Origin: Patescibacteria group bacterium
GTDB lineage: Bacteria; Patescibacteriota; Patescibacteriia; Patescibacteriales; UBA12465
Assembly: GCA_016938835.1 (NCBI GenBank)
Contig: JAFGTW010000019.1
Span: 1-62,811, forward strand
Length of the DNA stretch: 62,811 bases
Reading direction: 5' to 3'
A program made the translations under genes and the position numbers. The number at the start of each line of letters is the position of its first letter. Position 1 is the stretch's first letter. The notes under the pieces were generated by a model. The model was not told the origin of the DNA and ran no database searches. It saw nothing but the letters and a program-made list of their open reading frames with translations. Shown in pieces: positions 12,617 through 38,241 of this stretch.

Positions 12617-12628
12617 TATAACAGAGAT

Positions 12629-22066: not shown

Positions 22067-22101
22067 AAAACCCCGTAGCCAATTGGCTCTACGGGGTTTT
22101 T
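22067..22101. terminator. Bidirectional rho-independent terminator
   Basis: AAAA-ccccgtagcc-aatt-ggctctacgggg-TTTTT between convergent rpsU and rel. The rel stop codon lies inside the stem. Confidence 0.85.
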
Positions 22102-23558
22102 GATTTAATGCCCGGTATAAAACGTTTAATGTTTTCAAGCGGGCTTTTGCGAGCAAACTGCTTAATGCGGTCACGTGCACGTTTTGTTTTAACAAATTTT
22201 AACCAGTCGCGATTAGGATATAAGCGTCCTTTGTCAGTAATTATTTCTACTAGATCGCCATTTTTTAATTCCTGGTCAAGTTTAGCTAGACGGTCATTAA
22301 TAATGGCCCCGGTGGCCTGGTTGCCAATATTAGTGTGAATTGCATAAGCAAAATCAATTGGAGTGGAATGTTCAGTTAATTCAAAGGCGTCACCTTTTGG
22401 TGAAAACACAAAAATACGATCATTAAAAATATTTAATTTAATGTTTTTAATTAATTCATTGGTGTCTAAAACTTCCTTTTGGATATCAATAATTTCTTTA
22501 ACCCAGAGAGGCTGTTGCTCGCTTTGATTCTTTGATTTGTAATACCAATGAGCAGCTAGACCGTATAGAGATTCGTCATTCATCTCTTGAGTTCTAATTT
22601 GAAATTCTACTGCCTTGCTTTCTGGTCCAAAGATAGTGGTATGAAGTGAGCGGTAGCCATTTGGTTTAGGGACAGCAATATAGTCTTTAAAGCGATTTGG
22701 CTTTGGCTTCCAAAGGGTATGAATTATACCTAAGACTTTATAACAGCTATTAACATCTGGAACAATTATTCTTAAGGCAAATACATCATAAATTTCATCA
22801 AACCTACGATCTTTTCTTTGCATTTTTTGAAAAATGCTATATAGGTGCTTAAATCTTACTTCAATATCATATTTTAAATCCAATTCTTTTAATCGCGGAA
22901 TAAGCTCTATTTTGATTTTTTGAAAATATTGGTTCCTTTCTGCCTTTTTTTCTATTTCATATTCTTGTTCAAGTTCTTGAAATTTTTCTGGATAAAGATA
23001 TTTAAAACAAAGATCTTCTAATTGCCATTTTAAGCGCCAGATTCCAAGCATACCAGCAATAGGAGCATATATCTCTAAAGTTTCTTGAGCAATCCTTTTT
23101 TGCTTAGCGATTGGGAGCCCTTCAAGAGTGCGCAGATTGTGTAGGCGATCACAAAATTTAATGAAAATAACACGAATATCCGTGGTCATAGCTAAAAACA
23201 TTTTCTTTAAATTTTCTCGATAGCGCTCAATGCCTCTATATTTGATTTTACCCAATTTAGTAATACCGTCTACTAAATTAGCTATCTCATCACCGAAATT
23301 CTTTTGTACATCTTCAAAAGTTCGGTCAGTATCTTCAGGTACATCATGAATTAGTCCGGCTACAATAGTTGGTAGGTCAGCTTTTATTTCAGCTAATAAA
23401 AAAGCCGTATGCAGTGGGTGCTGAATGTAGGGTTCTCCGGTTTTACGTAGCTGGCCAGCATGAGCTTCATTAGCAAAATCATAAGCCAAATAAAGCATAG
23501 TGACGTCTTCGTCTGGATGACTTTCTTGAAATTTTTTTACTATACGATCTATGGTCAT
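22089..23558 (-). CDS. rel: Bifunctional (p)ppGpp synthetase/hydrolase, short Rel/SpoT homolog (HD + synthetase + TGS, no ACT region)
   Basis: HD hydrolase motifs (HPLHTA, IHDVPEDT), the RelA_SpoT core (RIIV, YRSLHTT) and a TGS-like C-terminus (VFSPKGD..LVEI). Confidence 0.92.
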   Translation of the reverse strand: MTIDRIVKKFQESHPDEDVTMLYLAYDFANEAHAGQLRKTGEPYIQHPLHTAFLLAEIKADLPTIVAGLIHDVPEDTDRTFEDVQKNFGDEIANLVDGITKLGKIKYRGIERYRENLKKMFLAMTTDIRVIFIKFCDRLHNLRTLEGLPIAKQKRIAQETLEIYAPIAGMLGIWRLKWQLEDLCFKYLYPEKFQELEQEYEIEKKAERNQYFQKIKIELIPRLKELDLKYDIEVRFKHLYSIFQKMQRKDRRFDEIYDVFALRIIVPDVNSCYKVLGIIHTLWKPKPNRFKDYIAVPKPNGYRSLHTTIFGPESKAVEFQIRTQEMNDESLYGLAAHWYYKSKNQSEQQPLWVKEIIDIQKEVLDTNELIKNIKLNIFNDRIFVFSPKGDAFELTEHSTPIDFAYAIHTNIGNQATGAIINDRLAKLDQELKNGDLVEIITDKGRLYPNRDWLKFVKTKRARDRIKQFARKSPLENIKRFIPGIKSKTP

Positions 23559-23583: not shown

Positions 23584-23592
23584 TGCTATAAT
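23584..23592 (+). promoter_or_regulatory. Extended -10 promoter element TGCTATAAT
   Basis: TGcTATAAT lies 58 nt upstream of the ATG at 23650. The same 9-mer recurs at 41282 and 48038. Confidence 0.4.
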
Positions 23593-23649
23593 AATTATAA
23601 CTGCTTAGCTTTTAAATTATACCATGCTTTGCGGTTCAATTAAAATAAA

Positions 23650-26331
23650 ATGAGTCGAAAATTATTATTTTTTTTAACGCCCCTTGTTGTTATAATAGGA
23701 CTTGGTCTGGCTACTTTTGCTTTGGCCCAAAACATTGATATTGGTACTAATGAAATTAGTAACGCAATTAGTTTAAGTGCAACTGACCCACGCATTATTA
23801 TTGCTAGAATAATTAATATTATTTTATTATTTTTAGGTGTAATTGCAGTTAGTCTGATAATTTATGCGGGTTTTATTTGGACAACAAGCGCTGGTAATGA
23901 TGAAAAAGTAGAAGAGGCTAAAAAAATATTAAAAAATGCAATTATTGGTTTAGTTATTATTTTATCTTCTTGGGGGATTGCGACTTTTGTATTAAATCGC
24001 TTAATAGGATCTACTGGCTCGGCTTCAATTTGGAATGCAAGCTCAAATAATATGCCATCATTAGTGGGAACTGGGGCCATCGGTGCCTGTACTATTGAAA
24101 GAGTATATCCTGAGAATAATCAAAGCAATGTTGCACGCAATACTTCAATTATTATTAGCTTTAAAGAGCCTTTACGTTTAGATAGTGTTTGTCAGGACTC
24201 AAATGCCAATAGCTGTGTTTGTGATGAAGCGAATTGCAAATATATTAATCCTGATGCTATTAGAATTTTTCGGGAAGATTTAGGCGATAGTTGTGATCTT
24301 GATGCCTGTCCGGGAGATAGTACCAATGTTAATCAGGCAATTATTAAGGCTTCTAGTGATCGTCGTACCTTTATTATTTCTCCCGAGAATTTATTAGGAG
24401 TACCAGAAGGTAATACAGATTATCAGGTTAAATTAACTAATGCTTTACTGAAAGATAATAATGACTCAGTTTTTAAAACTTGTAATAGTGACTATTTTCA
24501 GTGGGGCTTTGAGGTTAGCAATAATTTAGACTTAACGCCACCTCAGGTTATACGTGGCGGTATTTTCCCTTTGCCAGATAATGAGAAAGATATTATTGAA
24601 CAGTCAAGCGCAGCAGTCGCGGCTTCAGCCTTAATTCAGGTGAATGATTGTCCTAATATTTATAAAGAAGCTAGTATTATTAGCGTTACTCCAATGGTAG
24701 GAGGGCAATCTGCTTCGGCTGTAGTTGATGATAATTATCATGCCAGTCTTAATTCTTTCACGGTCGTTTCTTTAAGTGATAATAGTCAAGCACAATTATT
24801 TTCTGGACAAAATCTGTTAAGCGTGGGCGACTGGGAGGACAATCAAGTTAGTTTTACTGGATTTATAACTCTTGAAGTTAGCGCTCATGAGGCAGGCAAT
24901 TCTTGGTCAATCGCTGTTAGTCCGGAAATATTAGCAGATCAAATTACAGTGGGCGGTCAAATATATAGTTTTGCTATTAATGATATTGGTAATAATATTT
25001 CAGTTGATACTCTTAATGATACTTGTAGTCTTGAGGCTGTTGCTTCTTCCATTTATTTTAAATTAAGTGGCAATCCTTACATTAATGTTGATATTTCAGG
25101 AAGTAAAGTTATATTAGAGGCTAAAGTCGCCGGGACTGATGGAAATAATATTTTATTGACTAGTAGTAATCCTGTGGCTTTCAGTTTAAAACCTTTTAGC
25201 GGTGGGGTTAATTTAAAAAAAATTAATGAAACCAATGATCGTCAAGATCGTCCAATGAATTCGGTGATTCAGATTAATTTTAATGAAGCGATGAATCCTC
25301 TATTAGTTTCTGGTACGTCTGATGAAGTCAATGCGTATATTCGTGTTATTAATGCTGAAAATGCTGCCTTAGCTGAAGCTTCTTGCGCTCAGGATAGTGA
25401 TTGTCAATCGTATCAATGTGAAAACAGTGTTTGTATCGGTGACTATTTATCCGGCAAGTTTATGGTGTCTAATGCTTATAAAACAGTTGAGTTTATTTCT
25501 AATGAAGAATGTGGACAAAATGCTTGCGGGGAAACAATTTATTGTTTGCCGGCCAACAGTCATCTCGCAGTTGAGCTTGTATCTTCAAATTTAAAAACTT
25601 GTAATAGTGATGAGGATTGTGCTGATTTTACTCCTTTTTCTACTTGTGCTTCCTTTGCTGATTATAAGACATGTCAGGACACGAACAATAAAAATTACCC
25701 AGTTGCCGACGTGGCTAAATTAGATGGTATTATTGATGCTGCTTTAAATTCTATGGATGGTAATCGCGATGTTTTTGCTGATGGACCTTTGGCTTTTTAT
25801 AATGAAAATAACAATGAGGACTTAAATTTAAAAGATAAATATAAATGGTCTTTCTATATTAATGATCAAATCATGCTTGATCCTCCCTATATTACTTATA
25901 TTAATCCAGATAATAATAGCTTAGGGGTTGATATAAATATGCCGATACAGATAAATTTTAATACTTTAATGATGAATGATAGTTTGCGCACAGGTACAGA
26001 GCTTATTGATAATGGACAAACAATTATTGAACATCATTTATTAAATATTTTTAGTAGCATTCCAAGCCCTATTGGTTATTGGGTAACCGTCGAAAATCGT
26101 GATGTTTCTCCTTTGGATGGTGAACCTGATACTACTTATGCTTTTATTAGGCATAATGGTATGTCTCCATCAGCTAGTTACAAGAGTCAGGTTGGTTCTG
26201 GTGTTAAAGATATTTATCAGAATTGTTTTAAGCCTAGTGTTGGGCCTAATTGTATTGCCAACGACAGTAATCCTTCTTGTTGTTATGGATCAAATACAAA
26301 TTTATTAGGCAGTGATGGTAACTGTCAATAA
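23650..26331 (+). CDS. Large surface protein: VirB2/TrbC-like pilin hairpin fused to an Ig-like, Cys-rich ectodomain
   Basis: 893 aa. Signal peptide (..ATFALA|QN), two TM helices around the charged loop TSAGNDEKVEEAKKILKN, then three SbsA/Big_5-like segments (e.g. RNTSIIISFKEPL, NSVIQINFNEAMNP, MPIQINFNTLMMND) and Cys clusters. Confidence 0.85.
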   Translation: MSRKLLFFLTPLVVIIGLGLATFALAQNIDIGTNEISNAISLSATDPRIIIARIINIILLFLGVIAVSLIIYAGFIWTTSAGNDEKVEEAKKILKNAIIGLVIILSSWGIATFVLNRLIGSTGSASIWNASSNNMPSLVGTGAIGACTIERVYPENNQSNVARNTSIIISFKEPLRLDSVCQDSNANSCVCDEANCKYINPDAIRIFREDLGDSCDLDACPGDSTNVNQAIIKASSDRRTFIISPENLLGVPEGNTDYQVKLTNALLKDNNDSVFKTCNSDYFQWGFEVSNNLDLTPPQVIRGGIFPLPDNEKDIIEQSSAAVAASALIQVNDCPNIYKEASIISVTPMVGGQSASAVVDDNYHASLNSFTVVSLSDNSQAQLFSGQNLLSVGDWEDNQVSFTGFITLEVSAHEAGNSWSIAVSPEILADQITVGGQIYSFAINDIGNNISVDTLNDTCSLEAVASSIYFKLSGNPYINVDISGSKVILEAKVAGTDGNNILLTSSNPVAFSLKPFSGGVNLKKINETNDRQDRPMNSVIQINFNEAMNPLLVSGTSDEVNAYIRVINAENAALAEASCAQDSDCQSYQCENSVCIGDYLSGKFMVSNAYKTVEFISNEECGQNACGETIYCLPANSHLAVELVSSNLKTCNSDEDCADFTPFSTCASFADYKTCQDTNNKNYPVADVAKLDGIIDAALNSMDGNRDVFADGPLAFYNENNNEDLNLKDKYKWSFYINDQIMLDPPYITYINPDNNSLGVDINMPIQINFNTLMMNDSLRTGTELIDNGQTIIEHHLLNIFSSIPSPIGYWVTVENRDVSPLDGEPDTTYAFIRHNGMSPSASYKSQVGSGVKDIYQNCFKPSVGPNCIANDSNPSCCYGSNTNLLGSDGNCQ

Positions 26332-26393
26332 ATAATATAATATATAGAAAATTTAAAGTTATTAATTTAATCTAAAAATTTATTTTTAAATCT

Positions 26394-29300
26394 GTGTTGA
26401 AAAATAACAAGAATATTTTTAAATTTTTAGTGTTTACGCTTGTTTTGAGCTCAATAGTTGGTTTTGTTCAATTAGCTTCAGCTCAAATAAACGTTGGCAC
26501 TAATGAGATTGATAATAATATTAGTCTTAGTGCAAATGATCCACGAACAGTCGCTGCTCGTGTTATTAATATTGCTATGCTTTTCCTAGGCATTTTAGCG
26601 GTAGGAGTTATTGTTTGGGGTGGTTTTATTTGGATGACTTCAAATGGCGATGAGGAAAAAGTGGCACAAGCTAAAAAAATTCTTAAAAATGGTGTTATTG
26701 GTTTAGTTATTATTTTATCTTCTTGGGGTATTGCTACTTTCATTTTAAATCGTTTAATTAATTCAACTGGAAATAGTTCTAGCTCTTTTTCTTGTACTGA
26801 TAATCAGTCTTTAGCTTGTGGTTGTGGCGGCTCAATGACTTGTATTGGTGGTTCATGGGGGTCCTGTTTAGGTTCTAATTGTAGCAGCAGCAGTGGTCAA
26901 ACTAGTTGTGACAGCAGTCCTCTAAATGGTTGTCAGGCTAGTGATCAAATTTGTGCTGATAGCAGCTATTGTGATGCTGATACTTGTTCTTGCTTGCCTA
27001 AAGGCGAATTAGGTGATTCTTGTGATTTAAGTCCCGAGACAGCTACTTGTGAGATTAATAATAATTTTTGTTCTGAATATTTAACATGCAGTCCCGATTC
27101 TTGTACCTGTGAAGGCTCTCCGGTTATTACGGCTATTAGTCCGGCGGGAGGTTTTTGTGAAGAAGATATTAATAAAAGTTGTAATGGCGATGAGGAGTGT
27201 ATATTAAGTTGCAATTTAACAGACCCAAATGGGTCCGCGGGCAATATTGTTACTATTAGTGGGAGTAATTTTGGTTCTTATGATCCTTTAGTTAGTAAGG
27301 TTATTTTTGATGGCGACGCTGTGGGCATCATGCCCAGCGAGATTAATCCGGAATGTATTAATTCGTGGACAAATCATCAAATTATTGTAGCTTTGCCAGT
27401 TGATGTTCAAACGGGTCCAGTTACCGTCATTAGTGCTGATAATAAATCAGATGTTAGTAACGATAATTATGGTCCAGAGTTACCTGATTTTATTGTTAAT
27501 AATATTGCCCGACCGGGACTTTGTTTAGTGACTCCAGACGCTGGTCTTTTAAGTCAACAAGTTAATTATCAAGGTATCAATCTTTATGCTGGTGAAGCTT
27601 TCTTTGGCAGTTATAGTAAAAATGTAGCCGGACTTGATTCAGTTTTCACAAATCCGGCTGGCGTTGCTGGCACTAGCATTGTGCCAAATTTAAATGAAGG
27701 GAAAATGAGTAGTTTTGTGATGGCTTCTATTTCAGGTAATCAAGAAAAAAGTAATTATGTCACGTTTGTTAAAGAGCGAGAACCAAATACTGGACCTTAT
27801 ATTAGTTATTTTGAACCAGTAATTGGTCGAGCAGGGCAATATATTACTATTCATGGTGGTGGATTTGGCGGTGCTCAGGGTTACTCCAAGGTATTTTTTG
27901 GTGACGTTGAGGCCGATTATGATTTCCCGGCTGTTTGTGCAAATTCAGTTTGGCGTGATAAGCAAATTATTGTTAAAGTTCCAGCTGATGTGTCTGATGG
28001 CTCTTTTGAAATTAGAATTGAACTTAATGGTGAACAAATAAATTCACAAAATGCTAATCCCAATGTATTTACAGTTGATACTAATGAATCTTTAAAGACA
28101 AGTATTTGTAAAATTTCTCCTTCTCGGGGACAGATTGGCACTATTGTGAGTATTTGGGGTGAATATTTTGGTAAGAATAATGATAATGCTCTTGTTAGTT
28201 TTACTTATAATAAGACAACTAGTGCAATGATTAATAGTGATGACAATGATCAGCTGGCACAGTTACTTGAACCAAGTGTTCCTGATAATGCTACAACTGG
28301 TTCTCTCAAGGTTATTAAAAATAACGAATGGGGCAATGATGTTAATTTTGAAGTAGGTGTTTGCGTTGAAGATAGTGATTGTGGTGATGAAGTTTGTTGC
28401 CCTGTTAATACCTATAAACAGGGAGTTTGTGCGCCAACGCTGGCTTCCTGTTATGTTGATGTACCGACCTCAGTGTTTGAATGGGGGTTTTCTACTGGTT
28501 ATGGCGGTGGTGAAAATAATGTTGTTTATGATAGTTGTCAAGAAATGGCAAAGACATTAGGTGCTTGTCAAATTGGTTCATTTTGTCCTAATTCTCCCGG
28601 TCTATGTTCTCCGTATGCTGGAGGCGCTTTGAATTTAGGTTCATGTGATTCAACTTGTACTAGCGTTAATGCTTGTATAGGACAGACTTCGGGTTGTAGC
28701 TTTAATGGTGATATTGATACCTGCGTTTTAAATAATGCTATTTGCTCTCCAGATACTTCCTTTACTTATAATTTAAATAATTTAGAAATTAATACAAAGA
28801 AGGTTTGTAAATCTTTTTCCCAATTTGGTAATCAAAATCACTTTGAAATAAAAACTTCATCTTCATGTCCTCAAGATTGGACGCGATTAGATGGCGGTCG
28901 TTGTGTTGATAGTATCAGCTCAACTGAGTCTAGCTGTTCTATCTGTGTAACTGGTTTTACATGTTATGCAGAAGAAAATAGTGAGACTGGTGTTTGTATA
29001 AGTCCCGAGCTTTGTAAAGGTGCAGCTGAATGTCAGGGACAAACTTGTGTATCTCAAGAAGATGCTCATTGTGACTGTTGTTGTGAAATTGGAGAAGATG
29101 TTCGTGATTGTTGTGCTCCTTTAACTTGTAGTGGAACTTGTGGCAGTGATACTAGTAATGACGGAGTTGGCTTTGGCCAATGTTCCGGTTGCAGTATTAT
29201 TGATAATGGAATTGTTAATCAAGATTTATCCGATCAGGCTTGTAATTGTAGTACTAGTTCTGGTAAATATTGTGACACCACTATCCCTACTGGTACTTGT

Positions 29301-32249
29301 TTGGATTGCAGCTTACTGTCGGCTGATGCTTGTTTAGATCATAGTCAGGCATGTTGTCTAGATTCTAAGGGCACCAGTGATATTGGCGATGATGTTTGTG
29401 TTGGTGGCAATGGGCAAGCCATTACTAGCGATGAGATTAGTCCTGACTTTGGTTATTGTGCTCGTTATGATTGTAGCGCTAATCTTGACCAAACAAGTGA
29501 TGGCTTTTGTGCTTCAAGCACTCCTTTAAAGTTAGGATTTTTTAAGAGTATAGATAAATGTGAAGATACTTGTGAAGCTGGTGGTAATGATTCTATTTGT
29601 GGTCAGTATAACGGCGACTTAAGTTCTTGTAGTGCTAGTAGTGATTGTTGTTTTAATTTTAGTGATCAAAAATGTGAAGCTGGTGATAAAACCGCTGATG
29701 GTTATTGTACTTATTATGATTGTCAAGCCTCACCAAATGAGGGTAAATGCAATGCTAATCCTGCGGCTACTGGAACTTATAGCACTTATTTAGATTGTAA
29801 TATTGCTTGTTCTCAGCCATCCCTAGGTGGGCTAGGCAAGGATTGTCGTTCTATCGCTAGTTCCGCTACAGACTGTAACCAGTCTTTTTGTAGTTCTCCT
29901 TTTGCTTGTTTGAATGATGCTGGTACTATTGGATTACCAGGCAATTGTGGTACTTGCTGTTGTCAGGTAGATAATCCTTTATCTTGTGCCAATATAGGCA
30001 GTGGCAATTTAATTTGCCAACCAAATACAACTCCTTGCTCTGGAGATGATCGTGGTTTATGTTGTGGTTGTTCTGCGGATGATAATTGTGGCAATGTAAG
30101 TACTCTTGGTTGTGATTCTGGTGCTTGTTGTCGCGCCCGTCCGGCAGTTTTAACTAATCAATTAAATCCCGCCCACGGAGCTAGCAATGTTTGTCGCAAT
30201 GTTACTTTGCAAATCCCCTTCGATCAGTATATGGATATAAAAAGTCTTGAGGAGAATATCTTGTTGTTAGAGGAAATTAGTTATGGAAGTGGTGTTTGTC
30301 CTACGGGTACTTTTGTTGTTTCGGCTGAAGGTTTTCAGTACCAGCGTCAAAATTGGTTAGCGCGCAATATTGCAAAAATGAGTTATAAGTTTAGCAATCT
30401 CTTCCATCATTTAGGTTTATCTTCAGGGGTCGCTCTAGCCGGGATTCCTGATTCATCAAAACTTTATTGTTCTGTTCCTGGGTCGATATCATTAAGTCAA
30501 AGCGGTAATGGCAGTTTAGTTGAGTTCGCTCCTAAAAAGCTGCTTTCTCCTGGGTCTAATTATTATTTAGTCATAAAAGGTGATGAGGCCCTAGATAGTA
30601 ATACGGGCGTTTTAAGTCAATGGCAAATTGGTTTTAATGGCGATGGTTATTTAGATTTATCTTCTGGTACTTATACTGAAGGTGTAAATTTATCCTTTAA
30701 TAACTTAACATTTATTAATTCCTATATTGTAAATTTTACTACTCTATCTCAACAGGGCGCAAATGCAGGTGTATGCGCGGTTGACTATGTATTAGGTAGC
30801 CCAACATCTTATTTGTTTCAGACCACTGTAAATGATCTTAATGAAAATGATGCCGATATTTCTGCTAGTAATTTTGATACGGTCGCTGACAAAGATAAAC
30901 TTTTTACAGCCAATGCTTATAGTGCTGATGGTCAGATGCTTCATCCCACTTCAGCTTATTATTGGGACTGGAATTGGGATATTACTAAGCCAAACTTAGC
31001 AAGCATTTTAAATGTTAGTAGTTTAGCTGTAAATCAAGCTTTTGTTTCAGCTACTGATGGTGTTACTGATGATTCTGGCGTGTTAACTGCTCAAATTAAT
31101 ATGGATCGTTTTTCTGCTCCGGGCTGTAATGACGCCACTAATTGTGTTTGCGCTGAACCTGGCTGTTTTAATAATTGTTGTAATTTATATCAGGATGGTG
31201 ATGGTGCTAAAGCAAATATACCTCTATTTGTATTTATTTGTAAAAATCCTTGGCCGGCGGTTAATCAGAATGATTTAAGTTGGTCTCCTTGGTATGACAC
31301 CTGTGTTGGTGTTAGCAGCTCTGACTGCTCTAATTATAATTATAAGTTTTATTATTGTCGTGATGCCGGTACAGATTTATTAAGTGACGATTTGCCGGCT
31401 ATGATTAATCCAGCGATAATCAAAGGGGGAAGTGGTATTTTTACTTGTAGCGAGGGGCAAACTGCCTGTGAAATTAATGATGTTAATAAAGGTTTGTGCG
31501 GGCCAGATAATAATTTTGATGGAAATCCAGACGGTTTCTGTGTTTGGAGTGTTTTAAAGGAGTCTTATTTCTTTAAGGAAGAGGTGCCAACGGTGGGCGC
31601 TATTACCGCTGCTATTGATTTGGAAACTGGAAGTTCTGTTAGCCTAGAATGGTATGGAGATTCTAGTTTAATTTATAATGTTGATGCAAATAAGCTTGGT
31701 AAATATCGTATTTATTATACTTCAATAACATCTGGTAATACCGCTTTTATTGATGTTAAGCCGAATGATATTTTAGACGATAATATTAACACTGTATGTA
31801 CCCCCCTGCATCCAGTTAGTGGCTCAAATTATTCTTGTCATTATCAAATTGATAATTTAGTTACTGGTGACACTTATAGTTTTAAGGTTTCAGCTATATC
31901 TTTTACTCAAGTTGAAAGTGCTTTATTTGGTGGAAGATCAGTAACTCTGACCGACATGATGGCTCCAGAGAAACCTCTTGGCTTCCTTGCTTCTATTGCC
32001 ACTGATCAGCGTTTAAATTTTACTTGGTTAACCAATAATGATGATACGCGTTTTTATCGTTTGTATCACGGCATTAATTCTGGACAGTATGGAGAGTCTT
32101 TTGACTCGGATGATAATGCTACTTCTTTGGACCTGGATAGCAGACAATTTAGTGCAGGTACCCATTATTTTGCCTTATCAGCCATTGATAATGCGGGTAA
32201 TGAGAGTCTTAAATCAATAGAAGTCTCTATTATTATTCCAGTTCAATAA
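26394..32249 (+). CDS. Giant (1951 aa) cysteine-rich surface protein: pilin-like hairpin + IPT/TIG repeats + Cys-knot-like regions + two FN3 domains
   Basis: Non-ATG start (GTG 26394 or TTG 26397) is needed to include a signal peptide paralogous to ORF 23650. IPT-like GNIVTISGSNFG, GQYITIHGGGFGG, GTIVSIWGEYFG. FN3-like C-terminus (LNFTWL..YRLYHG..YFALSAIDNAGNES). Confidence 0.9.
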   Translation: MLKNNKNIFKFLVFTLVLSSIVGFVQLASAQINVGTNEIDNNISLSANDPRTVAARVINIAMLFLGILAVGVIVWGGFIWMTSNGDEEKVAQAKKILKNGVIGLVIILSSWGIATFILNRLINSTGNSSSSFSCTDNQSLACGCGGSMTCIGGSWGSCLGSNCSSSSGQTSCDSSPLNGCQASDQICADSSYCDADTCSCLPKGELGDSCDLSPETATCEINNNFCSEYLTCSPDSCTCEGSPVITAISPAGGFCEEDINKSCNGDEECILSCNLTDPNGSAGNIVTISGSNFGSYDPLVSKVIFDGDAVGIMPSEINPECINSWTNHQIIVALPVDVQTGPVTVISADNKSDVSNDNYGPELPDFIVNNIARPGLCLVTPDAGLLSQQVNYQGINLYAGEAFFGSYSKNVAGLDSVFTNPAGVAGTSIVPNLNEGKMSSFVMASISGNQEKSNYVTFVKEREPNTGPYISYFEPVIGRAGQYITIHGGGFGGAQGYSKVFFGDVEADYDFPAVCANSVWRDKQIIVKVPADVSDGSFEIRIELNGEQINSQNANPNVFTVDTNESLKTSICKISPSRGQIGTIVSIWGEYFGKNNDNALVSFTYNKTTSAMINSDDNDQLAQLLEPSVPDNATTGSLKVIKNNEWGNDVNFEVGVCVEDSDCGDEVCCPVNTYKQGVCAPTLASCYVDVPTSVFEWGFSTGYGGGENNVVYDSCQEMAKTLGACQIGSFCPNSPGLCSPYAGGALNLGSCDSTCTSVNACIGQTSGCSFNGDIDTCVLNNAICSPDTSFTYNLNNLEINTKKVCKSFSQFGNQNHFEIKTSSSCPQDWTRLDGGRCVDSISSTESSCSICVTGFTCYAEENSETGVCISPELCKGAAECQGQTCVSQEDAHCDCCCEIGEDVRDCCAPLTCSGTCGSDTSNDGVGFGQCSGCSIIDNGIVNQDLSDQACNCSTSSGKYCDTTIPTGTCLDCSLLSADACLDHSQACCLDSKGTSDIGDDVCVGGNGQAITSDEISPDFGYCARYDCSANLDQTSDGFCASSTPLKLGFFKSIDKCEDTCEAGGNDSICGQYNGDLSSCSASSDCCFNFSDQKCEAGDKTADGYCTYYDCQASPNEGKCNANPAATGTYSTYLDCNIACSQPSLGGLGKDCRSIASSATDCNQSFCSSPFACLNDAGTIGLPGNCGTCCCQVDNPLSCANIGSGNLICQPNTTPCSGDDRGLCCGCSADDNCGNVSTLGCDSGACCRARPAVLTNQLNPAHGASNVCRNVTLQIPFDQYMDIKSLEENILLLEEISYGSGVCPTGTFVVSAEGFQYQRQNWLARNIAKMSYKFSNLFHHLGLSSGVALAGIPDSSKLYCSVPGSISLSQSGNGSLVEFAPKKLLSPGSNYYLVIKGDEALDSNTGVLSQWQIGFNGDGYLDLSSGTYTEGVNLSFNNLTFINSYIVNFTTLSQQGANAGVCAVDYVLGSPTSYLFQTTVNDLNENDADISASNFDTVADKDKLFTANAYSADGQMLHPTSAYYWDWNWDITKPNLASILNVSSLAVNQAFVSATDGVTDDSGVLTAQINMDRFSAPGCNDATNCVCAEPGCFNNCCNLYQDGDGAKANIPLFVFICKNPWPAVNQNDLSWSPWYDTCVGVSSSDCSNYNYKFYYCRDAGTDLLSDDLPAMINPAIIKGGSGIFTCSEGQTACEINDVNKGLCGPDNNFDGNPDGFCVWSVLKESYFFKEEVPTVGAITAAIDLETGSSVSLEWYGDSSLIYNVDANKLGKYRIYYTSITSGNTAFIDVKPNDILDDNINTVCTPLHPVSGSNYSCHYQIDNLVTGDTYSFKVSAISFTQVESALFGGRSVTLTDMMAPEKPLGFLASIATDQRLNFTWLTNNDDTRFYRLYHGINSGQYGESFDSDDNATSLDLDSRQFSAGTHYFALSAIDNAGNESLKSIEVSIIIPVQ

Positions 32250-32267
32250 TGTTTTAAATATTAATAT

Positions 32268-35210
32268 ATGAAATTAAAAAAACATTTTATTTTAACTTTA
32301 CTGTTGTTATTGTTTTTTTCTTTTGTTTTTTTTAATCAAGTTAAGGCATTATCTGATTCAAATGAAGCTATTAATGAAAGCGATGCCATTGCTGTTAGAA
32401 TTTTACCTAATCCCAATCATTATAGTGCTGCTCGCTGGTATAAGAGTCAAGGTTTTTCTGGCTCCCCTCAGGCGTTATTAGTCGATTCATATGATGCTGT
32501 GCGTGATGGACGCACTGTTTATGTGAATGCCGCCAATATTAGTGGCAATACTATTTATACTAATATTTATTTGATTTCATATAATCAAGACCCAAATATA
32601 AAAACAGTTGATGTTTTGGGACAAATTGTTGATCACTGGCAGTTTAATAGTAATTTATCAGGAGTTGGTAGTTGTAGTATTTCAACTTTAAGTTGTAATG
32701 ATAATAATGAGTGCGGACAGGGTTTAGAATGCTCAAGTAATAGCAGTGCTTCTGGGCGCTGTCAATTAATAGAAAATGATAATTGCTATACTGATGATGA
32801 TTGTCCTCAGGGTTTATATTGTGATAATTTGAGATCAATGGTGGCTCGTGACGTTCGTCGTTTAGGTGTTTTGGGTAATTTAAGGGAAGCTCTAGCGGTC
32901 TTTAAGCAAATAAATAATAAATATCCAGTCTTAAGTGCTGGTACATATGTACCACTTAATTCTCTTTCAGTTTGGCCAAGTTGGCAGGCTTTATTCTTGC
33001 CTCAAATTGGTGTTTCTCAAAGAGAAATTGATTCAATAAATAGATTGGGTATTTGCGATGGTTTTGATAGTATTACTTGTTGGAATAAAGAGACTCAAAA
33101 TTTTGCTGACCCTCAACCAAATAATAGTACTTTGGAACTGCCAGCTAATAGTTACGTTTTTGCTTACAGTAGTGATAGTAATGGCTCTAATTATAATTTA
33201 TGTGCAGTTATGGAAACTAAAGCTCTTGGCTATAATACTGCTGAAGGGCAATTATCTAATTTAGGCTGTATTGCCAGTGGTTCTGGTTATACGGGTTATA
33301 GTAATAATTTAGCCCCCGTACTAATTGATACAAAGTTGTATGGTGAACAGAACCAAGAGTTTAATGGTTTTATTAAGGTTATCGATCCAGAAAATAATAG
33401 TTTAGATTGGTCAATTAATACTTCAGGAACTTGGGGTAATTGGAGCTCTGCTCCAATTTTGATGGATACTTATAATCCTAATCAGAAAAAAATATATGCA
33501 GTTAGAGCTGGAAATGTTGGTACATATAATCTTATTTTAAATGTAGTGGATTCAGAGGGAGCAATCATGTCCACAAATACTCCGATTGTTATTAGTAATA
33601 ATGAGCCTTTAATTCAATCTGATGATATTGATTATTATCCCAGTACAGTAATTCCTTTAGCTATTAACTTTAGTATTACTGACAAGGATTATCCTTTAAG
33701 TTACACAATTACCAAGTTTGAATACGATTCAGGTCCTTATGATTTGCTATCTTCGTCCAAATCCACTTTTTTGGGTGAAACCTCTCGTCGTAGCGGAGAT
33801 ACAACATATTACACACTAAAATACAGATTAAACACCTCAAATAAGTTTTTATCGGATACAGTTTTTGTTTATTCGATTTCAGCCAAAGATCACTATGGAA
33901 TGGAATCAACCAGAAAAGTGACAATTAATGTGAAAGTTGATCAGCCGATTTTAGATTTTAATTGTGCTAAAACAGTGCGAGTTGGCTCTGCTTATTATTG
34001 TGGTTTAGGTTGGCAAAAACAAGGAGATCACACTATTAATTATACTGTTGTTGGTTCTTTGCCAGATGGACTTAGTATTAGCAATTCTAGCAGTTTAGAT
34101 ATTTCATATAACGTAGAGCCAATCAATACTAAGCCTTGGCAGAAATTTCTTTCGTGGTTAGGAATAGAAAAAAATAATTTTTTATCTAGTGCTGAGGCTG
34201 CCGATGTGGCGTCCTATTATGCTTTACAAGGAACGCCTAACGTTTCTTCTGTAAACAATTTAATTAAGATTAAAGCTGAGAATGAATTTGGGGCTGTTTC
34301 TCAAAGAGAATTTAACCTTTCAATTAATAATTACTGTGGTGACGGTATTAGACAACAACCAAATTTGGAAGGCCGCGGTGGCTTCTATAATGATGGTCAA
34401 GAGAGTTGCGATGGCGATAGTAATATTGTGTTAAATAGGATTCAGATTCCCGCTAGTTCTGCGGATTTTCAATATGCTTGCACTACTAAGCCTGGAGATA
34501 TTGTTCCTTATCCTATTATGAATAATCAGTATTTTTGTACTTTTTCTGACGATCAATTAAACGGTGGTTTTTGTGGTGATGGTGTTTGCCAGTACTCCAT
34601 TGAGCGCAATGGTAACATTATACCTTGGGAAGGGGTTGGTTATTGTAATATTGATTGCGGTGATTGCGGTATAAATGCTTCTTATAACGGTAGCGATTGC
34701 GTTTGTAATTCTGGCTTTTATGATTGTTCGGCAGATATCTTGGGCTGTGAAAGTAGTAGTCAGTGTGGTGATGCCTGCCCTTCTGGGCAATATGAATGTG
34801 ATGGAAAATGTGTGATTGAAAACGATCTTTCTCCGGCTTGCGACTCTATTAGCCAGTGCAGCTCAAGCCTTAAAGGCGATTGTTCATATTGTGAGACAGG
34901 TTATTATAATTGTGATTATTCAGGTGAATGTGAATCATTTGGAGTTTGTACTTGCCCAGCTGGCACTAGTTGGAATAAAGCTGTTTGGCCATACGGCCAA
35001 TGCGTAGTTGATAATATTGGCTGCACCAGTGAAGAAGGTCTTTGTGGTAATCAGTGTTATGATTTAAAGACGGAAAAGTGTTGTGATGCTGATTCTAGTT
35101 CGGTATGTCCAACAAATAAATATTGTTGTTTAGTCGGCGATAATAATGTGTGTTCTTATAACGCGCTTCAGTGTCAAAAACTTAAGGATGCCTTCTCTAC
35201 TATTAAGTAG
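32268..35210 (+). CDS. Large (980 aa) secreted cysteine-rich protein
   Basis: Signal peptide MKLKKHFILTLLLLLFFSFVFFNQVKA. CGDG..ESCDGD and FCGDGVCQ repeats resemble the CxxCGDG cysteine-rich repeat. Dense Cys in the last ~300 aa. Confidence 0.85.
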   Translation: MKLKKHFILTLLLLLFFSFVFFNQVKALSDSNEAINESDAIAVRILPNPNHYSAARWYKSQGFSGSPQALLVDSYDAVRDGRTVYVNAANISGNTIYTNIYLISYNQDPNIKTVDVLGQIVDHWQFNSNLSGVGSCSISTLSCNDNNECGQGLECSSNSSASGRCQLIENDNCYTDDDCPQGLYCDNLRSMVARDVRRLGVLGNLREALAVFKQINNKYPVLSAGTYVPLNSLSVWPSWQALFLPQIGVSQREIDSINRLGICDGFDSITCWNKETQNFADPQPNNSTLELPANSYVFAYSSDSNGSNYNLCAVMETKALGYNTAEGQLSNLGCIASGSGYTGYSNNLAPVLIDTKLYGEQNQEFNGFIKVIDPENNSLDWSINTSGTWGNWSSAPILMDTYNPNQKKIYAVRAGNVGTYNLILNVVDSEGAIMSTNTPIVISNNEPLIQSDDIDYYPSTVIPLAINFSITDKDYPLSYTITKFEYDSGPYDLLSSSKSTFLGETSRRSGDTTYYTLKYRLNTSNKFLSDTVFVYSISAKDHYGMESTRKVTINVKVDQPILDFNCAKTVRVGSAYYCGLGWQKQGDHTINYTVVGSLPDGLSISNSSSLDISYNVEPINTKPWQKFLSWLGIEKNNFLSSAEAADVASYYALQGTPNVSSVNNLIKIKAENEFGAVSQREFNLSINNYCGDGIRQQPNLEGRGGFYNDGQESCDGDSNIVLNRIQIPASSADFQYACTTKPGDIVPYPIMNNQYFCTFSDDQLNGGFCGDGVCQYSIERNGNIIPWEGVGYCNIDCGDCGINASYNGSDCVCNSGFYDCSADILGCESSSQCGDACPSGQYECDGKCVIENDLSPACDSISQCSSSLKGDCSYCETGYYNCDYSGECESFGVCTCPAGTSWNKAVWPYGQCVVDNIGCTSEEGLCGNQCYDLKTEKCCDADSSSVCPTNKYCCLVGDNNVCSYNALQCQKLKDAFSTIK

Positions 35211-35242
35211 GTTAATTTTTAATTGTATTAATTAATAAAATT

Positions 35243-35506
35243 ATGAAAAGGTCTTATATAAATTCAATTAGGTGGGTGTTATTGTTGGCCTTGTTGTTCG
35301 TTTTGGTTTTTATTTTTTGGAATTTATTATTAAAAAAATCTACACCTAATAATTCTGAGATCATTTTTATAAATAATAATCAGCCAATATTGATGAATAT
35401 TGATGAAAAAAATGAATTAGGAATTCCTGAAAATATGTCTGTAGAAATTTTGAATCGTACTCAAGATGGTCAAATAACCACCTATAAGTTAATAAAAGAT
35501 AATTAA
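35243..35506 (+). CDS. Small N-terminally anchored protein
   Basis: 87 aa with one TM (WVLLLALLFVLVFIFWNLLL). Lies inside the surface-protein block. Confidence 0.5.
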   Translation: MKRSYINSIRWVLLLALLFVLVFIFWNLLLKKSTPNNSEIIFINNNQPILMNIDEKNELGIPENMSVEILNRTQDGQITTYKLIKDN

Positions 35507-35531
35507 ACAATAAAAAGGTTTTATTATTTAA

Positions 35532-35561
35532 TTGGGATTATTTGTAAAAATTCGCTATAAT
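35532..35561 (+). promoter_or_regulatory. Sigma70-like promoter candidate
   Basis: TTGGGA, 18 nt, TATAAT (35556-35561), upstream of the ATG at 35598. Confidence 0.45.
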
Positions 35562-35597
35562 ATAATTAATTAATAATATTCATAAATTTTTAAATCT

Positions 35598-36341
35598 ATG
35601 TTTGATAATTTAGACAAACAAACTTCCAATGTTTCTGGCGAAAAGGCTGTAGATGATATTTTTGCTGAAACTGAAGGGAGTCAAATAGCTGGTGCTGAAC
35701 TTAAGTCTGGTAATATTGAGGCCCAGTCAGCTGGACTAGCTTCTCATTCTTATGACGAAGAAGCCAATGAACATTCTGAAAAATCAGCTTTTAAATACAA
35801 AAATTTGGTCATAATTTCGTTTTCGTTGCTTATTTTAGTAGCTTTAGCTTATTTGGTTTATGTTAAATTTTTAAGCACGCCTAAGCCAGCTGAACAGTCA
35901 ATGGTTGATAACGCAAAAATAAGTGATAATGAGTTAAATAATGCTATTATTCCAAGCGTTAATCAACAAGAAACTAATATCATGAATGAAAAAAATAATA
36001 ATCAAGGGTCTATTGTTGAGCCAATGGTTGGTGAAAATCGCGTAGTTGAGCCAGTTGATAACGCTAGTATGACCGATACTGTTATAGAGGAAAATCCAGC
36101 AATTCCAGTTGTAACAGCGCCGGTTGATTCTGACGCCGATAGTTTAACTGATATGGAAGAGATTTCTTTAGGTACAAATATTAATTTAATTGACTCCGAT
36201 TTTGATGGCTTATCTGATTATGAGGAGGTAAGAGTATACTATACCAATCCTTTGAATGCTGATACGGATGGAGACGGTTATACGGATGGGAGTGAGATTC
36301 AAAATGGTTATAATCCTAATGGTGAGGGTATTTTACAATAA
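35598..36341 (+). CDS. Single-pass membrane protein with thrombospondin-type-3-like Ca-binding repeats
   Basis: TM (LVIISFSLLILVALAYLVYV), then DSDADSLTDMEE, DSDFDGLSDYEE, DTDGDGYTDGSE, NGYNPNG. Confidence 0.8.
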   Translation: MFDNLDKQTSNVSGEKAVDDIFAETEGSQIAGAELKSGNIEAQSAGLASHSYDEEANEHSEKSAFKYKNLVIISFSLLILVALAYLVYVKFLSTPKPAEQSMVDNAKISDNELNNAIIPSVNQQETNIMNEKNNNQGSIVEPMVGENRVVEPVDNASMTDTVIEENPAIPVVTAPVDSDADSLTDMEEISLGTNINLIDSDFDGLSDYEEVRVYYTNPLNADTDGDGYTDGSEIQNGYNPNGEGILQ

Positions 36342-36350
36342 TAATTATTT

Positions 36351-36542
36351 ATGAATTTAAATTACGGAAAAGATAATCAAAAAAATACTCCTTTGAAGAC
36401 TGGTAGTGTGGGGCTATACTTAAAAGTACATGTGATGCCTAAGTTAAATATGCCTTTGCGTGGAAAACCATGGCATTGGATAATGCCGGTAGTTTTACTG
36501 GCTTTGTCAGTTGTAGCTTTTTTTTATTTTTTTGCTAATTAA
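36351..36542 (+). CDS. Small protein with a C-terminal TM segment
   Basis: 63-aa ORF, 9 nt from both flanking paralogous genes. TM IMPVVLLALSVVAFFYFF. Confidence 0.4.
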   Translation: MNLNYGKDNQKNTPLKTGSVGLYLKVHVMPKLNMPLRGKPWHWIMPVVLLALSVVAFFYFFAN

Positions 36543-36551
36543 TTATTCAAA

Positions 36552-37583
36552 ATGGAACTAAATAAGGAGATTAAAATTAAAAAATCAACAGATAATCTAC
36601 AACAAAGGTTACAGGATGATTTTGTAGTTAAAAATATGCCATCTTTTAGTAGTTTAAGTGCTACTAGCTATGAAGGGGAAGAAGATGTTGATGCAAATAA
36701 AAATAATCACTCACTGTTTAAAAATAAAGCAAGCAAGGTTAATTCTCCTAAATTAATTGGTCTAATTATTATTAGTGTTGGCATTTTAGTTATTTTCGTG
36801 CTTTTTTATTTAGCTTATCGCTTTTTAATAGTACCCTCAATGACACCTTCAATTACACCAGAAATGACTAATAATAATCAAAATAATCTGGTTACAGTTG
36901 TAGCATCGACAGACTCTGTGGTGGAGCCTTTGATTAATAATGATGAAGAGACGGCCTCTTCTACTGTTGATGTTATTGCCGTTGAAGTGGTTTCTGGGGA
37001 AGTTGTGGAAGAAAAAGATAATTTAGTTTTGCCAACAGTTGTAGATAGCGATAGTGATGGATTAAGCGATGCCGCTGAATTATTCTTAGGAACAAATACT
37101 CAGTTAAGCGATACGGATAATGACGGTTATTCGGATTTTGAAGAAATTAATAGTGGGTATAATCCTAATGGGGCTGGTAAATTGGAGGAAAATAATAATT
37201 TAGCCTTATTCTCTAATACCGCTAGTGGTTTTGCGGTTATTTATCCTCATGATTGGGAGATTAATATTGTTTCTCCGGATTCAACTTTATTTTCAGCACC
37301 AAACACTTCTTTTATTCAAATATCAAGAGAAAATAGTGATCAAATTAATTCTGATATTATTAGTTGGTACCAAGAACAGTTTGGTGACATAGATGTACTC
37401 AGTCAGGATCGTTTTATTGATAGTAATTTTGGGCCAGGTATTGTTAGTGCAGATGGTCAAATTATTTATTTTTTAGGACCAGATAACCGTAGTATTTATG
37501 TTATTTCTTATATTAAGTCTGATGATTCAGCTCCTTATATAGAAATATTTAGAATGATGGCTAGCACATTAATGCCTTTATAA
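36552..37583 (+). CDS. Single-pass membrane protein with TSP3-like Ca-binding repeats plus a C-terminal globular domain
   Basis: TM (LIGLIIISVGILVIFVLFYLAY), DSDSDGLSDAAE, DTDNDGYSDFEE, SGYNPNG. Paralogous to ORF 35598 across the repeat region. Confidence 0.8.
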   Translation: MELNKEIKIKKSTDNLQQRLQDDFVVKNMPSFSSLSATSYEGEEDVDANKNNHSLFKNKASKVNSPKLIGLIIISVGILVIFVLFYLAYRFLIVPSMTPSITPEMTNNNQNNLVTVVASTDSVVEPLINNDEETASSTVDVIAVEVVSGEVVEEKDNLVLPTVVDSDSDGLSDAAELFLGTNTQLSDTDNDGYSDFEEINSGYNPNGAGKLEENNNLALFSNTASGFAVIYPHDWEINIVSPDSTLFSAPNTSFIQISRENSDQINSDIISWYQEQFGDIDVLSQDRFIDSNFGPGIVSADGQIIYFLGPDNRSIYVISYIKSDDSAPYIEIFRMMASTLMPL

Positions 37584-37600
37584 ATTTATTTCAAAAAATA

Positions 37601-37634
37601 AAAAACTCGTATCAAAGAAGATCGAGTTTTTTTT
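37601..37634. terminator. Bidirectional terminator-like hairpin
   Basis: A-tract, ctcg(t)atc-aaagaa-gatcgag, T8 tract. Lies between convergent ORF 36552 (+) and clpP (-). Confidence 0.65.
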
Positions 37635-37659: not shown

Positions 37660-38241
37660 TTATTCTTTACTAATTATTTTATCAATTAAACCATATTTTT
37701 TAGCTTCTTCAGCGCTCATAAAATTGTCGCGATCGCTATCTTTTTCAACGTTTGTAATTTTTTGTCCAGTGTGATTAGATAGTATTTGATTAATTTTATC
37801 TTTAATTTTTAAAATATGTTCAGCGCGGATTTTTATATCAGACGCCTGCCCTTCGGCTCCACCCATGACTTGATGAATCATTATTTCGCTGTTGGGTAAA
37901 GCTAGTCGTTTGCCCTTTTCTCCGGCAGCTAATAGAACAGAAGCCATTGATGCAGCCATGCCAATACAGATAGTTGAAACTGGACATTTAATGTATTGCA
38001 TAGTGTCATAAATTGCTAAACCTGCTGAAACAGATCCTCCGGGCGAGTTAATGTAGAATTTAATATCTTTTTCTTTATCTTCAGCGGCCAGAAAAAGCAT
38101 TTGAGCAATAACAATATTAGCGACATGGTCATCAATAGCTTCGCCTAAAAAAATAATACGGTCTTTGAGTAGACGTGAATAAATATCATAAGCTCGCTCT
38201 ACTTGTCCTTCTTTTTCAATTACTGTTGGTATAAGTGGCAT
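37660..38241 (-). CDS. clpP: ATP-dependent Clp protease proteolytic subunit
   Basis: [26 protein letters not shown], catalytic Ser in GMAASMAS, His in IMIHQ. Confidence 0.97.

Follow-up and report, generated by a model that had tools for sequence, protein, structure and literature searches.

A conserved seven-gene envelope block of Candidatus Falkowbacteria with predicted giant modular VirB2-type pilins, a candidate cell-contact apparatus

The contig JAFGTW010000019.1 of the Patescibacteria group bacterium assembly GCA_016938835.1, whose 62,811 nucleotides (nt) constitute the window analyzed here, carries a block of seven plus-strand open reading frames (ORFs), g1 to g7, at 23650-37583. Comparison with related genomes suggests that Falkowbacteria (Patescibacteria; GTDB class ABY1), a lineage of tiny bacteria with reduced genomes, have conserved the block as a single set of envelope genes, and the first two of its products are predicted to be modular VirB2-type pilins, in which a complete type IV secretion system (T4SS) pilin module carries a grafted ectodomain. 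The block is probably a conserved cell-contact apparatus tied to a pilus system. In the reading that we favor, with a probability of roughly 0.5, a T4SS-derived pilus would display g1 and g2 or serve as their docking site, and the secreted protein g3 would be an exchangeable binding cassette.

The evidence starts with the N termini of g1 and g2. The g1 gene (23650-26331, plus strand; 893 amino acids [aa]) codes for a signal peptide (aa 1-26), a pilin module with two transmembrane helices (aa ~27-122; nt 23728-24015), and an ectodomain of ~770 aa that contains at least two Big_5 Ig-like domains. The g2 gene (26394-32249, plus strand; 1951 aa, with a GTG start) codes for a signal peptide, a pilin module (aa ~30-125; nt 26481-26768), and an ectodomain of ~1830 aa with three TIG domains, a cysteine-dense region (aa ~650-1250), and a Big_5 domain. 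Both modules are recognized by the Pfam family T4SS_pilin (PF18895; cutoff, 26.6 bits), at 39.6 bits for g1 (aa 50-114) and 50.7 bits for g2 (aa 52-117). The NCBIfam model NF045849 (Mbov_0395 pilin-like conjugal transfer family; cutoff, 40) is passed by g1 at 41.1 and missed narrowly by g2 at 37.3. Hydropathy analysis places hydrophobic segments at aa 5-23, 49-67, and 97-115 of g1 and at aa 11-29, 57-75, and 100-118 of g2, and the two modules share a single order of parts: a Sec signal peptide, a short outside segment, the first transmembrane helix, a lysine-rich (K/E-rich) cytoplasmic loop, and the second transmembrane helix. The two proteins are 46% identical across their first ~210 aa and have no similarity elsewhere; the pilin module is among the best-conserved stretches of each. 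With respect to the ectodomains, the adhesive domain list of the original prediction stood in most of its entries, since Big_5 (56.9 bits in g1 and 28.2 bits in g2), TIG (53.5 bits in g2), and the TSP3 repeats described below all score above the Pfam cutoffs, whereas the fn3 domain listed with them is subthreshold in g2 (19.5 versus 25 bits). A search of solved structures with the g2 sequence gave no match.

The modules are close to pilins that occur on their own. A search with aa 1-135 of g2 retrieved 57 proteins, all of them stand-alone members of PF18895 and all but three 113-222 aa long; identity between the g2 module and the stand-alone pilins of Patescibacteria is 44-64% over ~90% of the query, and several of these matches are named 'pilin [Patescibacteria group bacterium]'. 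In the alignment the stand-alone pilins stop at ...LNRL..ATG, the very point at which g1 and g2 run on into their ectodomains through a common junction, ...LNRLI(G/N)STG. The large form is the rule among g1 homologues, 279 of which were found: the 120 listed are 747-921 aa long (nearly all 870-921 aa), nearly all with the same two Pfam domains, and the NCBI names of the orthologues are either 'Ig-like domain-containing protein' or 'pilin'. Pilins of this class are by common criterion small, with precursors of ~100-150 aa that end soon after the second helix; at 893 and 1951 aa, g1 and g2 depart from this.

Coincidence of the g1/g2 junction with the end of the stand-alone pilins is also what would be expected if both proteins were precursors cut after the second transmembrane helix. 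Cleavage would yield either a small pilin of the normal kind, in which case the ectodomain would serve as a pro-domain or chaperone, or a giant protein secreted in free form. Maturation of VirB2/TrbC pilins involves trimming at the C terminus and, for some of them, cyclization, which would accord with such processing. We nonetheless regard it as very unlikely, given that the block contains no protease gene, that a conserved pro-domain of 1830 aa would be uneconomical in a genome of ~1 Mb, and that these genomes already encode six to seven stand-alone pilins. The location of the ectodomains can be predicted by analogy: VirB2/TraA pilins expose their C terminus on the outside of both the membrane and the pilus, and we therefore infer that the g1 and g2 ectodomains are extracellular.

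VirB2-like pilins of Patescibacteria have been described previously (Wang et al. 2023, PMC10633639; Quinonero-Coronel et al. 2025, PMC12102498) and belong to the same family, PF18895, as the g1 and g2 modules. The described pilins are small, and the paralogues within their arrays diverge quickly, with a mean identity of 25% (PMC12102498). Unlike these, g1 and g2 are giant, have conserved ectodomains, lie outside any T4SS locus or array, and are part of a fixed seven-gene block with five non-pilin partners. Giant pilin fusions are mentioned in neither PMC10633639 nor PMC12102498.

A further property of the modules emerged from comparisons within and between genomes. Mature g1 and g2 modules of the same genome are on average 66% identical, compared to 58% for orthologous modules across genomes and 55% for g1 against g2 across genomes. 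In 51 of 52 genomes (sign test, p = 2e-14), the g1 and g2 modules are more alike within the genome than across genomes, and the same holds for 19 of 19 once close relatives are thinned out. Independent divergence since a duplication older than the clade would predict the same-genome and cross-genome identities to be equal. The modules appear instead to be kept matched, either by gene conversion or by coadaptation to each other or to a shared partner, and such concerted evolution favors a module that makes specific contacts over a plain membrane anchor. It is also the one indirect sign that the modules might polymerize into an extracellular pilus.

This last point bears on an alternative that we consider possible but doubtful, namely, that the products form a membrane-anchored coat. 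There the pilin module would be a two-helix anchor, g1 and g2 would be disulfide-bonded stalks to which g3 and the TSP3 proteins attach via calcium, and the resulting fixed outer layer would space, protect, or bind without any dependence on a T4SS. Such a coat would suit the position of the block, at least 23 kb from any VirB4 gene and among lepB, secDF, ftsA, and ftsZ, the envelope and division housekeeping genes of its neighborhood. Throughout the clade g1 and g2 vary neither in length nor in cysteines, a constancy that a structural lattice or stalk would predict, the Ig/cadherin-like arrays of the block resemble extender regions and the surface layer (S-layer) protein SbsB, and the size of the passengers speaks against packing into a pilus. 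Yet a plain anchor needs neither an identity of 44-64% to apparently functional stand-alone pilins that spans the signal peptide, outside segment, helices, and loop, nor the concerted evolution of g1 and g2.

The block was then placed in its phyletic and genomic context. A scan of one genome per GTDB species recovered relatives in 244 species, the informatively named ones of which are Candidatus Falkowbacteria. For synteny, the window proteins were compared by tblastn with 83 fetched loci, and the order relA(-)-g1-g2-g3-g5-g7-clpP(-)-secD was found in nearly every locus with enough flanking sequence; g4 and g6, which are too short for tblastn at that distance, were judged by positional ORFs with the same transmembrane layout. 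The synteny check proposed in the original prediction thus came out in favor of the block, which has the same seven positions in ~60 species-level Falkowbacteria genomes. Identity to the window proteins is 39-73% for g1, 28-74% for g2 (32-74% inside the syntenic block), 35-66% for g3, 30-69% for g5, and 26-62% for g7, and the median lengths of the orthologues are 897 aa for g1, 1948 aa for g2, 251 aa for g5, and 344 aa for g7 (range, 325-384 aa). Cysteines are retained with the same constancy: all 26 of those in g1 (56 orthologues) and 116 of the 124 in g2 are kept in at least 80% of the orthologues. The block makes up ~1.5% of a genome of ~0.9-1 Mb, and selection for it must therefore be strong. 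Its GC content equals that of the remaining window. An origin from a phage or prophage was considered and rejected, as there is no PHROG match other than a weak one to the TSP3 region of g5 (aa 175-242), no g3 relative on viral contigs (2.9 million searched), and no GC shift.

Such conservation of order would likewise result if these were unrelated envelope genes that stay adjacent only because rearrangements of this region are rare in the clade. In relatives, the order of the flanking genes relA, clpP, secD, secF, Wzy_C, pilD, and ftsA is also kept, and members of the g3 family occur elsewhere without g1 or g2. The seven exact ORF lengths (893, 1951, 980, 87, 247, 63, and 343 aa) and the spacings of 9-91 nt (62, 18, 32, 91, 9, and 9 nt from g1 to g7) reported earlier are read in the sequence exactly as given, but co-orientation and short gaps are not distinctive here, because 40 of the 45 genes in the window lie on the plus strand with a median same-strand gap of 23 nt. 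What marks the unit is its boundaries, formed by opposite-strand neighbors, relA/spoT at 22089-23558 on the 5' side and clpP at 37660-38241 on the 3' side, together with a conserved promoter and terminator. The promoter element TGCTATAAT (23584-23592, plus strand), an extended -10 motif, lies 66 nt 5' of the g1 start in the divergent relA-g1 gap, and of 56 related loci, 51 have TGnTATAAT ahead of their g1 orthologue, in most cases at a distance of 60-70 nt from the start codon. Between the convergent g7 and clpP genes, a hairpin at 37600-37632, which is assigned to neither strand, has a minimum free energy of -11.8 kcal/mol (z = -3.9 versus shuffled sequences) and is flanked by an A-run on one side and a U-run (T-run in the DNA) on the other; the g7-clpP gaps of 57 related loci have a median minimum free energy of -20.6 kcal/mol, and 47 of them contain both A5+ and T5+ runs. 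The hairpin is likely a bidirectional intrinsic terminator, and both it and the promoter, which had been noted from the one sequence, proved to be conserved in relatives. Further, the block contains two pairs of paralogues, g1/g2 and g5/g7, which supports a single unit, each of the seven products is a predicted secreted or membrane protein of the envelope, and g1 and g2 coevolve. In light of these features, we view the absence of any functional unit as quite unlikely.

The third gene, g3 (32268-35210, plus strand; 980 aa), codes for a secreted protein with a signal peptide and no further transmembrane helix. It comprises an N-terminal module (aa 27-350; nt 32346-33317), tandem Ig/cadherin-like β-sandwiches (aa ~351-690), a conserved cysteine region characterized by the CGDG motif (aa ~690-800), and a variable cysteine-rich C terminus (aa ~800-980, from nt 34668). 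There are 50 cysteines in g3, compared to the totals of 26 in g1 and 124 in g2, and none in g4 to g7, such that the earlier description of the whole block as cysteine rich is accurate for its first three products only. The CGDG repeats that formed part of that description amount to two copies in the block, both in g3. No Pfam or NCBIfam match was obtained for g3, whose homologues number in the hundreds at 40-73% identity and are all unnamed or 'hypothetical'. Clustered at 50% identity, the family as a whole has 1182 representatives at E <= 1e-3 and 473 at E <= 1e-30. Many of its distant members align only from query residue ~170 onward and sit in other contexts without g1 or g2; the g3 core family is therefore wider than the block, and these members provide no independent second context for the block as a whole. 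One locus (L023) has a g3 homologue (39% identity) at 9974-13003, outside the relA-clpP context, with a TSP3 protein just 3' of it and a stand-alone 124-aa pilin at 1477-1851, 8 kb upstream of the homologue; it forms a partial second context for g3.

Within g3, conservation is graded along the chain. The N-terminal module is the best-conserved stretch of the locus (74% mean identity at aa 51-100), and the N-terminal ~800 aa are conserved in general, followed by a last ~180 residues with low occupancy and identity among the orthologues, often absent or replaced. The C-terminal domains swapped in among g3 relatives include Fib_succ_major, He_PIG, carboxypeptidase-regulatory-like, β-helix, Dickkopf-like, disintegrin, PT-HINT, and Laminin_G_3 domains. 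This pattern is suggestive of a carrier-plus-effector layout. One family member of 1974 aa (P0215) combines 14 disintegrin repeats with a C-terminal PT-HINT domain, which is known from polymorphic toxins, and some carriers of the g3 family may deliver toxin-type payloads.

Structure prediction gave different results for the parts of g3. AlphaFold2 modeled aa 27-350 from an 84-sequence alignment with a predicted local distance difference test (pLDDT) score of 91.4 and a predicted template modeling (TM) score of 0.89; in a full-length model from 25 sequences, the central part was modeled well and the conserved N terminus poorly (pLDDT, 30-40). A Foldseek search with the N-terminal model against the PDB and BFVD returned nothing better than E = 0.03, with TM scores of < 0.2. 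Structurally, the central region resembles the tandem arrays of cadherin, titin, and RTX-adhesin extenders (E = 1e-10), with the S-layer protein SbsB among the matches, and a g3 profile run against the sequences of solved structures gave only marginal PKD-like matches. We also entertained the idea that aa ~188-320 of g3 (ARDVRRL...YP...YNLCAVME) might be the head of a type IV pilin or pseudopilin, but this segment matched no pilin family at E values of up to 1, and no pilin was found among the Foldseek matches to the confident model, and the idea was rejected as unsupported.

The structural resemblance to SbsB raises the question of whether the block encodes the main paracrystalline S-layer, or its anchoring, with TSP3 repeats providing calcium-dependent lattice contacts. 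Besides that match and the presence of calcium-binding repeats, the lineage-wide occurrence and housekeeping-level conservation of the block would befit an S-layer or cell wall scaffold. S-layers were reportedly observed on cells of the candidate phyla radiation (CPR) by cryo-transmission electron microscopy (Luef et al. 2015). Pitted against this are several features that make such a scaffold unlikely. Neither SLH, CWB2, nor any other known S-layer anchoring domain was found in the seven proteins with Pfam and NCBIfam, although an S-layer of a new type is possible. S-layer proteins are typically cysteine poor, and an S-layer usually consists of one or two abundant proteins, whereas the block encodes seven proteins, three of them very rich in cysteine. 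Moreover, the variable C terminus of g3 is a poor fit for a unit of a lattice.

The four remaining genes code for smaller membrane proteins. g4 (35243-35506, plus strand; 87 aa) is predicted to be a bitopic membrane protein with an N-terminal transmembrane helix, and 60 of 64 related loci have, in the corresponding place, an ORF of 83-140 aa with such a helix. g5 (35598-36341, plus strand; 247 aa) has a cytoplasmic N terminus of ~70 aa with the sequence MFNDLN..VDDIFAETD, one transmembrane helix, and three extracellular calcium-binding repeats of the TSP3 type. g7 (36552-37583, plus strand; 343 aa) is organized comparably, with a cytoplasmic N terminus of ~70 residues that includes D.IVHNMP, one transmembrane helix, two TSP3 repeats, and a C-terminal domain of ~135 aa (no family match for aa 205-343). 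The two are paralogous (32% identity; E = 1e-17) and are both recognized by TSP3_bac (PF18884; cutoff, 25 bits), g5 at 40.3 bits and g7 at 34.8 bits. The DxDxDG calcium-binding repeats listed in the original prediction correspond to three DxDxD(G) motifs in g5 and two in g7. Between them, g6 (36351-36542, plus strand; 63 aa) is predicted to be a tail-anchored protein, with a basic cytoplasmic N terminus that contains an L.(L/V)H(T/V)MP motif and a C-terminal transmembrane helix; its position is occupied by an ORF with a C-terminal transmembrane helix in 47 of 62 related loci (mostly 58-72 aa, with outliers of 39 and 50 aa), and the motif was seen in those ORFs that were inspected. Consequently, the statement that every product begins with a signal peptide or transmembrane anchor had to be abandoned, as ~70 cytoplasmic residues come first in g5 and g7 and the helix of g6 is C terminal. 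g4 and g6 have no Pfam match. Conserved motifs thus stand ahead of the transmembrane helices in the N terminus of g5 (35598-35670), in g6 (36351-36480; L.LHTMP), and in the N terminus of g7 (36552-36650), and they hint at a shared cytoplasmic partner. The earlier failure to recognize an enzymatic motif was borne out, in that none of the seven proteins matches an enzymatic family in Pfam or NCBIfam, and profile searches found no characterized family with an unrelated role.

Because g1 and g2 are anchored by complete VirB2-type modules that closely resemble the lineage's stand-alone pilins, the block can be understood as a variant attached to a known system, and it appears to be tied to the T4SS/pilin-array system already described in Patescibacteria (PMC12102498, PMC10633639). 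Tandem pilin arrays are found in genomes that have the block, and one such genome that was checked has VirB4 as well. A contig of 318 kb holds both an orthologous block (L013) and, ~100 kb away, an array of six pilin genes in tandem, together with an additional pilin gene (L088). The g1 and g2 modules are most closely related to the first gene of the six, and the arrangement of the array is repeated in a second lineage (L090/L091). The arrays lie at 10001-12552 of the loci L087 and L088 and at 10001-12536 of L090 and L091, with a truncated copy in L089, and a gene for an SBP_bac_1 solute-binding protein and a further pilin gene are located ~2 kb upstream (4 kb in L090/L091). A Falkowbacteria genome that holds an orthologous block (GCA_003489845.1; locus L002) is listed as VirB4 positive in Table S1 of PMC12102498. 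Pilin arrays are reported across Patescibacteria (PMC12102498, PMC10633639) and are essential for epibiotic growth in the cultured Patescibacterium Southlakia (PMC10633639).

On the basis of these observations, we propose that pilin modules act as carriers and that g1 and g2 would be recognized by T4SS-type pilus machinery encoded elsewhere in the genome, i.e., VirB4 and arrays of six to seven small pilins. g1 and g2 might coassemble with each other and with the small pilins; owing to their bulk, they would most likely be placed at the tip or base of a filament or in a membrane pilin platform. Secreted g3 would dock via its invariant N-terminal module and extend on its Ig-like stalk, so as to expose the exchangeable C-terminal module as a ligand-binding end. 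g4 to g7 could form a membrane base that links the assembly to cytoplasmic partners, with the TSP3 repeats of g5 and g7 binding calcium outside. Such an assembly would serve to contact other cells or surfaces, the lineage being presumably episymbiotic. A bolder version, which we put forward only tentatively, is that a T4SS-derived pilus with giant VirB2-type modular pilins at its tip or base presents g3, with its new fold, that the swappable cassette sets the partner, and that the block would be the host recognition organelle of an uncultured episymbiont lineage.

Several points weigh against placing g1 and g2 on a pilus. No VirB4, VirB6, or VirB3 gene is present among ORFs of at least 90 aa in the 62.8-kb window, nor is a small pilin, and no VirB4 was found within 10 kb of the pilin arrays examined; location in a T4SS locus, a usual criterion for VirB2/TrbC-type pilins, thus does not apply to g1 and g2 in this window, where the only T4SS-type gene outside the block is that of a VirD4-like ATPase (52119-53966, plus strand), 14.5 kb downstream. 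A passenger of 770 or 1830 aa on every subunit has no room in the wall of a helical pilus, which would allow only rare or terminal incorporation, and we know of no VirB2-type pilin with a large passenger that has been shown to polymerize. The concerted evolution of the modules could have its source in neutral gene conversion between adjacent paralogous segments. Adjacency alone is no proof of functional coupling either, because the whole surrounding region is syntenic too. Finally, the near-invariance of g1 and g2 in length and cysteines is no less compatible with a fixed structural role than with that of an adhesin. With respect to adhesion to a host, which had been suggested earlier and which we find plausible, this near-invariance does not fit the rapid diversification of host range adhesins, in that the C terminus of g3 alone varies; it points to g1 and g2 as a conserved structural carrier, with any binding variability residing in g3.

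In overall design, g1 and g2 together with g3 are reminiscent of the modular type IV pilins. In Streptococcus sanguinis PilB and in CofB of enterotoxigenic Escherichia coli, a small pilin carrier is joined by a short linker to a bulky effector with a predicted location at the filament tip, and CofB can present a secreted non-pilin partner, CofJ (PMC8179133). The likeness is one of design only, as the superfamilies are unrelated: type IV pilins have a class III signal peptide that is cut by PilD and a single N-terminal helix (IPR012902), unlike g1 and g2 with their Sec signal peptide and two-helix VirB2 hairpin, and no match to N_methyl or to any type IV pilin family was obtained for g1 to g7 in Pfam or NCBIfam. 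The passengers of g1 and g2 are also several times larger than the vWA module of PilB. Candidatus Falkowbacteria receives special mention for its extreme architectures in a survey of these modular pilins (PMC8179133), and it seems that this lineage grafts large modules onto pilins of two unrelated superfamilies.

For g3 the nearest parallel is provided by the tip adhesins of the PilY1/PilC type, which are likewise non-pilin proteins that combine an invariant module with exchangeable ones (PMC8179133); docking of g3 itself to a pilus is a prediction of the proposed reading. It differs from PilY1 in lacking a β-propeller (IPR008707) and any detectable sequence relationship, and its conserved module is N terminal. 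A second parallel, to the PrgB-type surface adhesins of Gram-positive conjugation systems and the extenders of RTX adhesins, lies in the large extracellular tandem β-sandwiches and calcium-binding elements of the block, and the central region of g3 matches the structure of the RTX adhesin PDB 6xi1 at E = 3.5e-9. Unlike those systems, however, g1 to g3 have no LPxTG motif (a regular expression for the sorting motif [LIV]Px[TSA][GNDA] found none, and the C termini are not hydrophobic) and no internal sequence repeats, and RTX repeats and type I secretion system genes are absent. PrgB homologues have not been found in Patescibacteria (PMC12102498).

Some of this is already known: the component domains are recognized by current annotation, and the VirB2-like pilins of Patescibacteria have been published. 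The literature yielded no description of giant VirB2-type modular pilins, of the seven-gene locus, or of the fold of the g3 N terminus; hence, the original assertion that no characterized system has this composition can be upheld for the composition, but the g1 and g2 modules belong to a T4SS pilin system that has been described. If the proposed reading is correct, g1 and g2 would be the first giant VirB2-type modular pilins known, and the modular pilin principle would extend from type IV pilins to the unrelated VirB2 class. The N-terminal module of g3 offers a high-confidence model without a neighbor in the PDB or BFVD, in a family of more than 1000 cluster representatives. What the block presents is the lineage-wide use of a pilin module as the predicted carrier of very large conserved ectodomains, along with a secreted protein with an exchangeable end. 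Among monoderms, Patescibacteria alone are known to pair a Gram-positive-type T4SS with VirB2-like pilins, and epibiotic growth of the single lineage tested depends on that system (PMC10633639, PMC12857230); the products of the block are concrete candidates for contact machinery, of relevance to both CPR biology and T4SS research.

Finally, a number of observations concern the expression of the block and its neighbors. The 25-nt leaders of the seven genes (23625-23649, 26369-26393, 32243-32267, 35218-35242, 35573-35597, 36326-36350, and 36527-36551) are all AT rich, and no Shine-Dalgarno-like purine run is found in the 25 nt before any of the start codons. The 91-nt gap between g4 and g5 contains a promoter-like TTGGGA-18-TATAAT at 35532-35561 (plus strand), and TAnAAT occurs within this gap in 45 of 59 related loci; the site might drive g5 to g7 separately, although the region is AT rich and the evidence accordingly weak. 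The remainder of the window had been characterized as bare housekeeping, which is mostly right, except that it also encodes the VirD4-like ATPase, a prepilin peptidase PilD, and two Wzy_C proteins. The ATPase is a stand-alone VirD4/TrwB-like coupling protein with a C-terminal treble-clef zinc finger, encoded between nrdG-like and RNase T-like genes. The Wzy_C proteins, membrane proteins resembling the O-antigen ligase and PglL, are encoded at 10366-11622 and 41313-43628 (both plus strand), the latter having TPR repeats and being followed directly 3' by the gene for PilD (43634-44440, plus strand). They are possible O-glycosylation enzymes for pilins or Ser/Thr-rich surface proteins.

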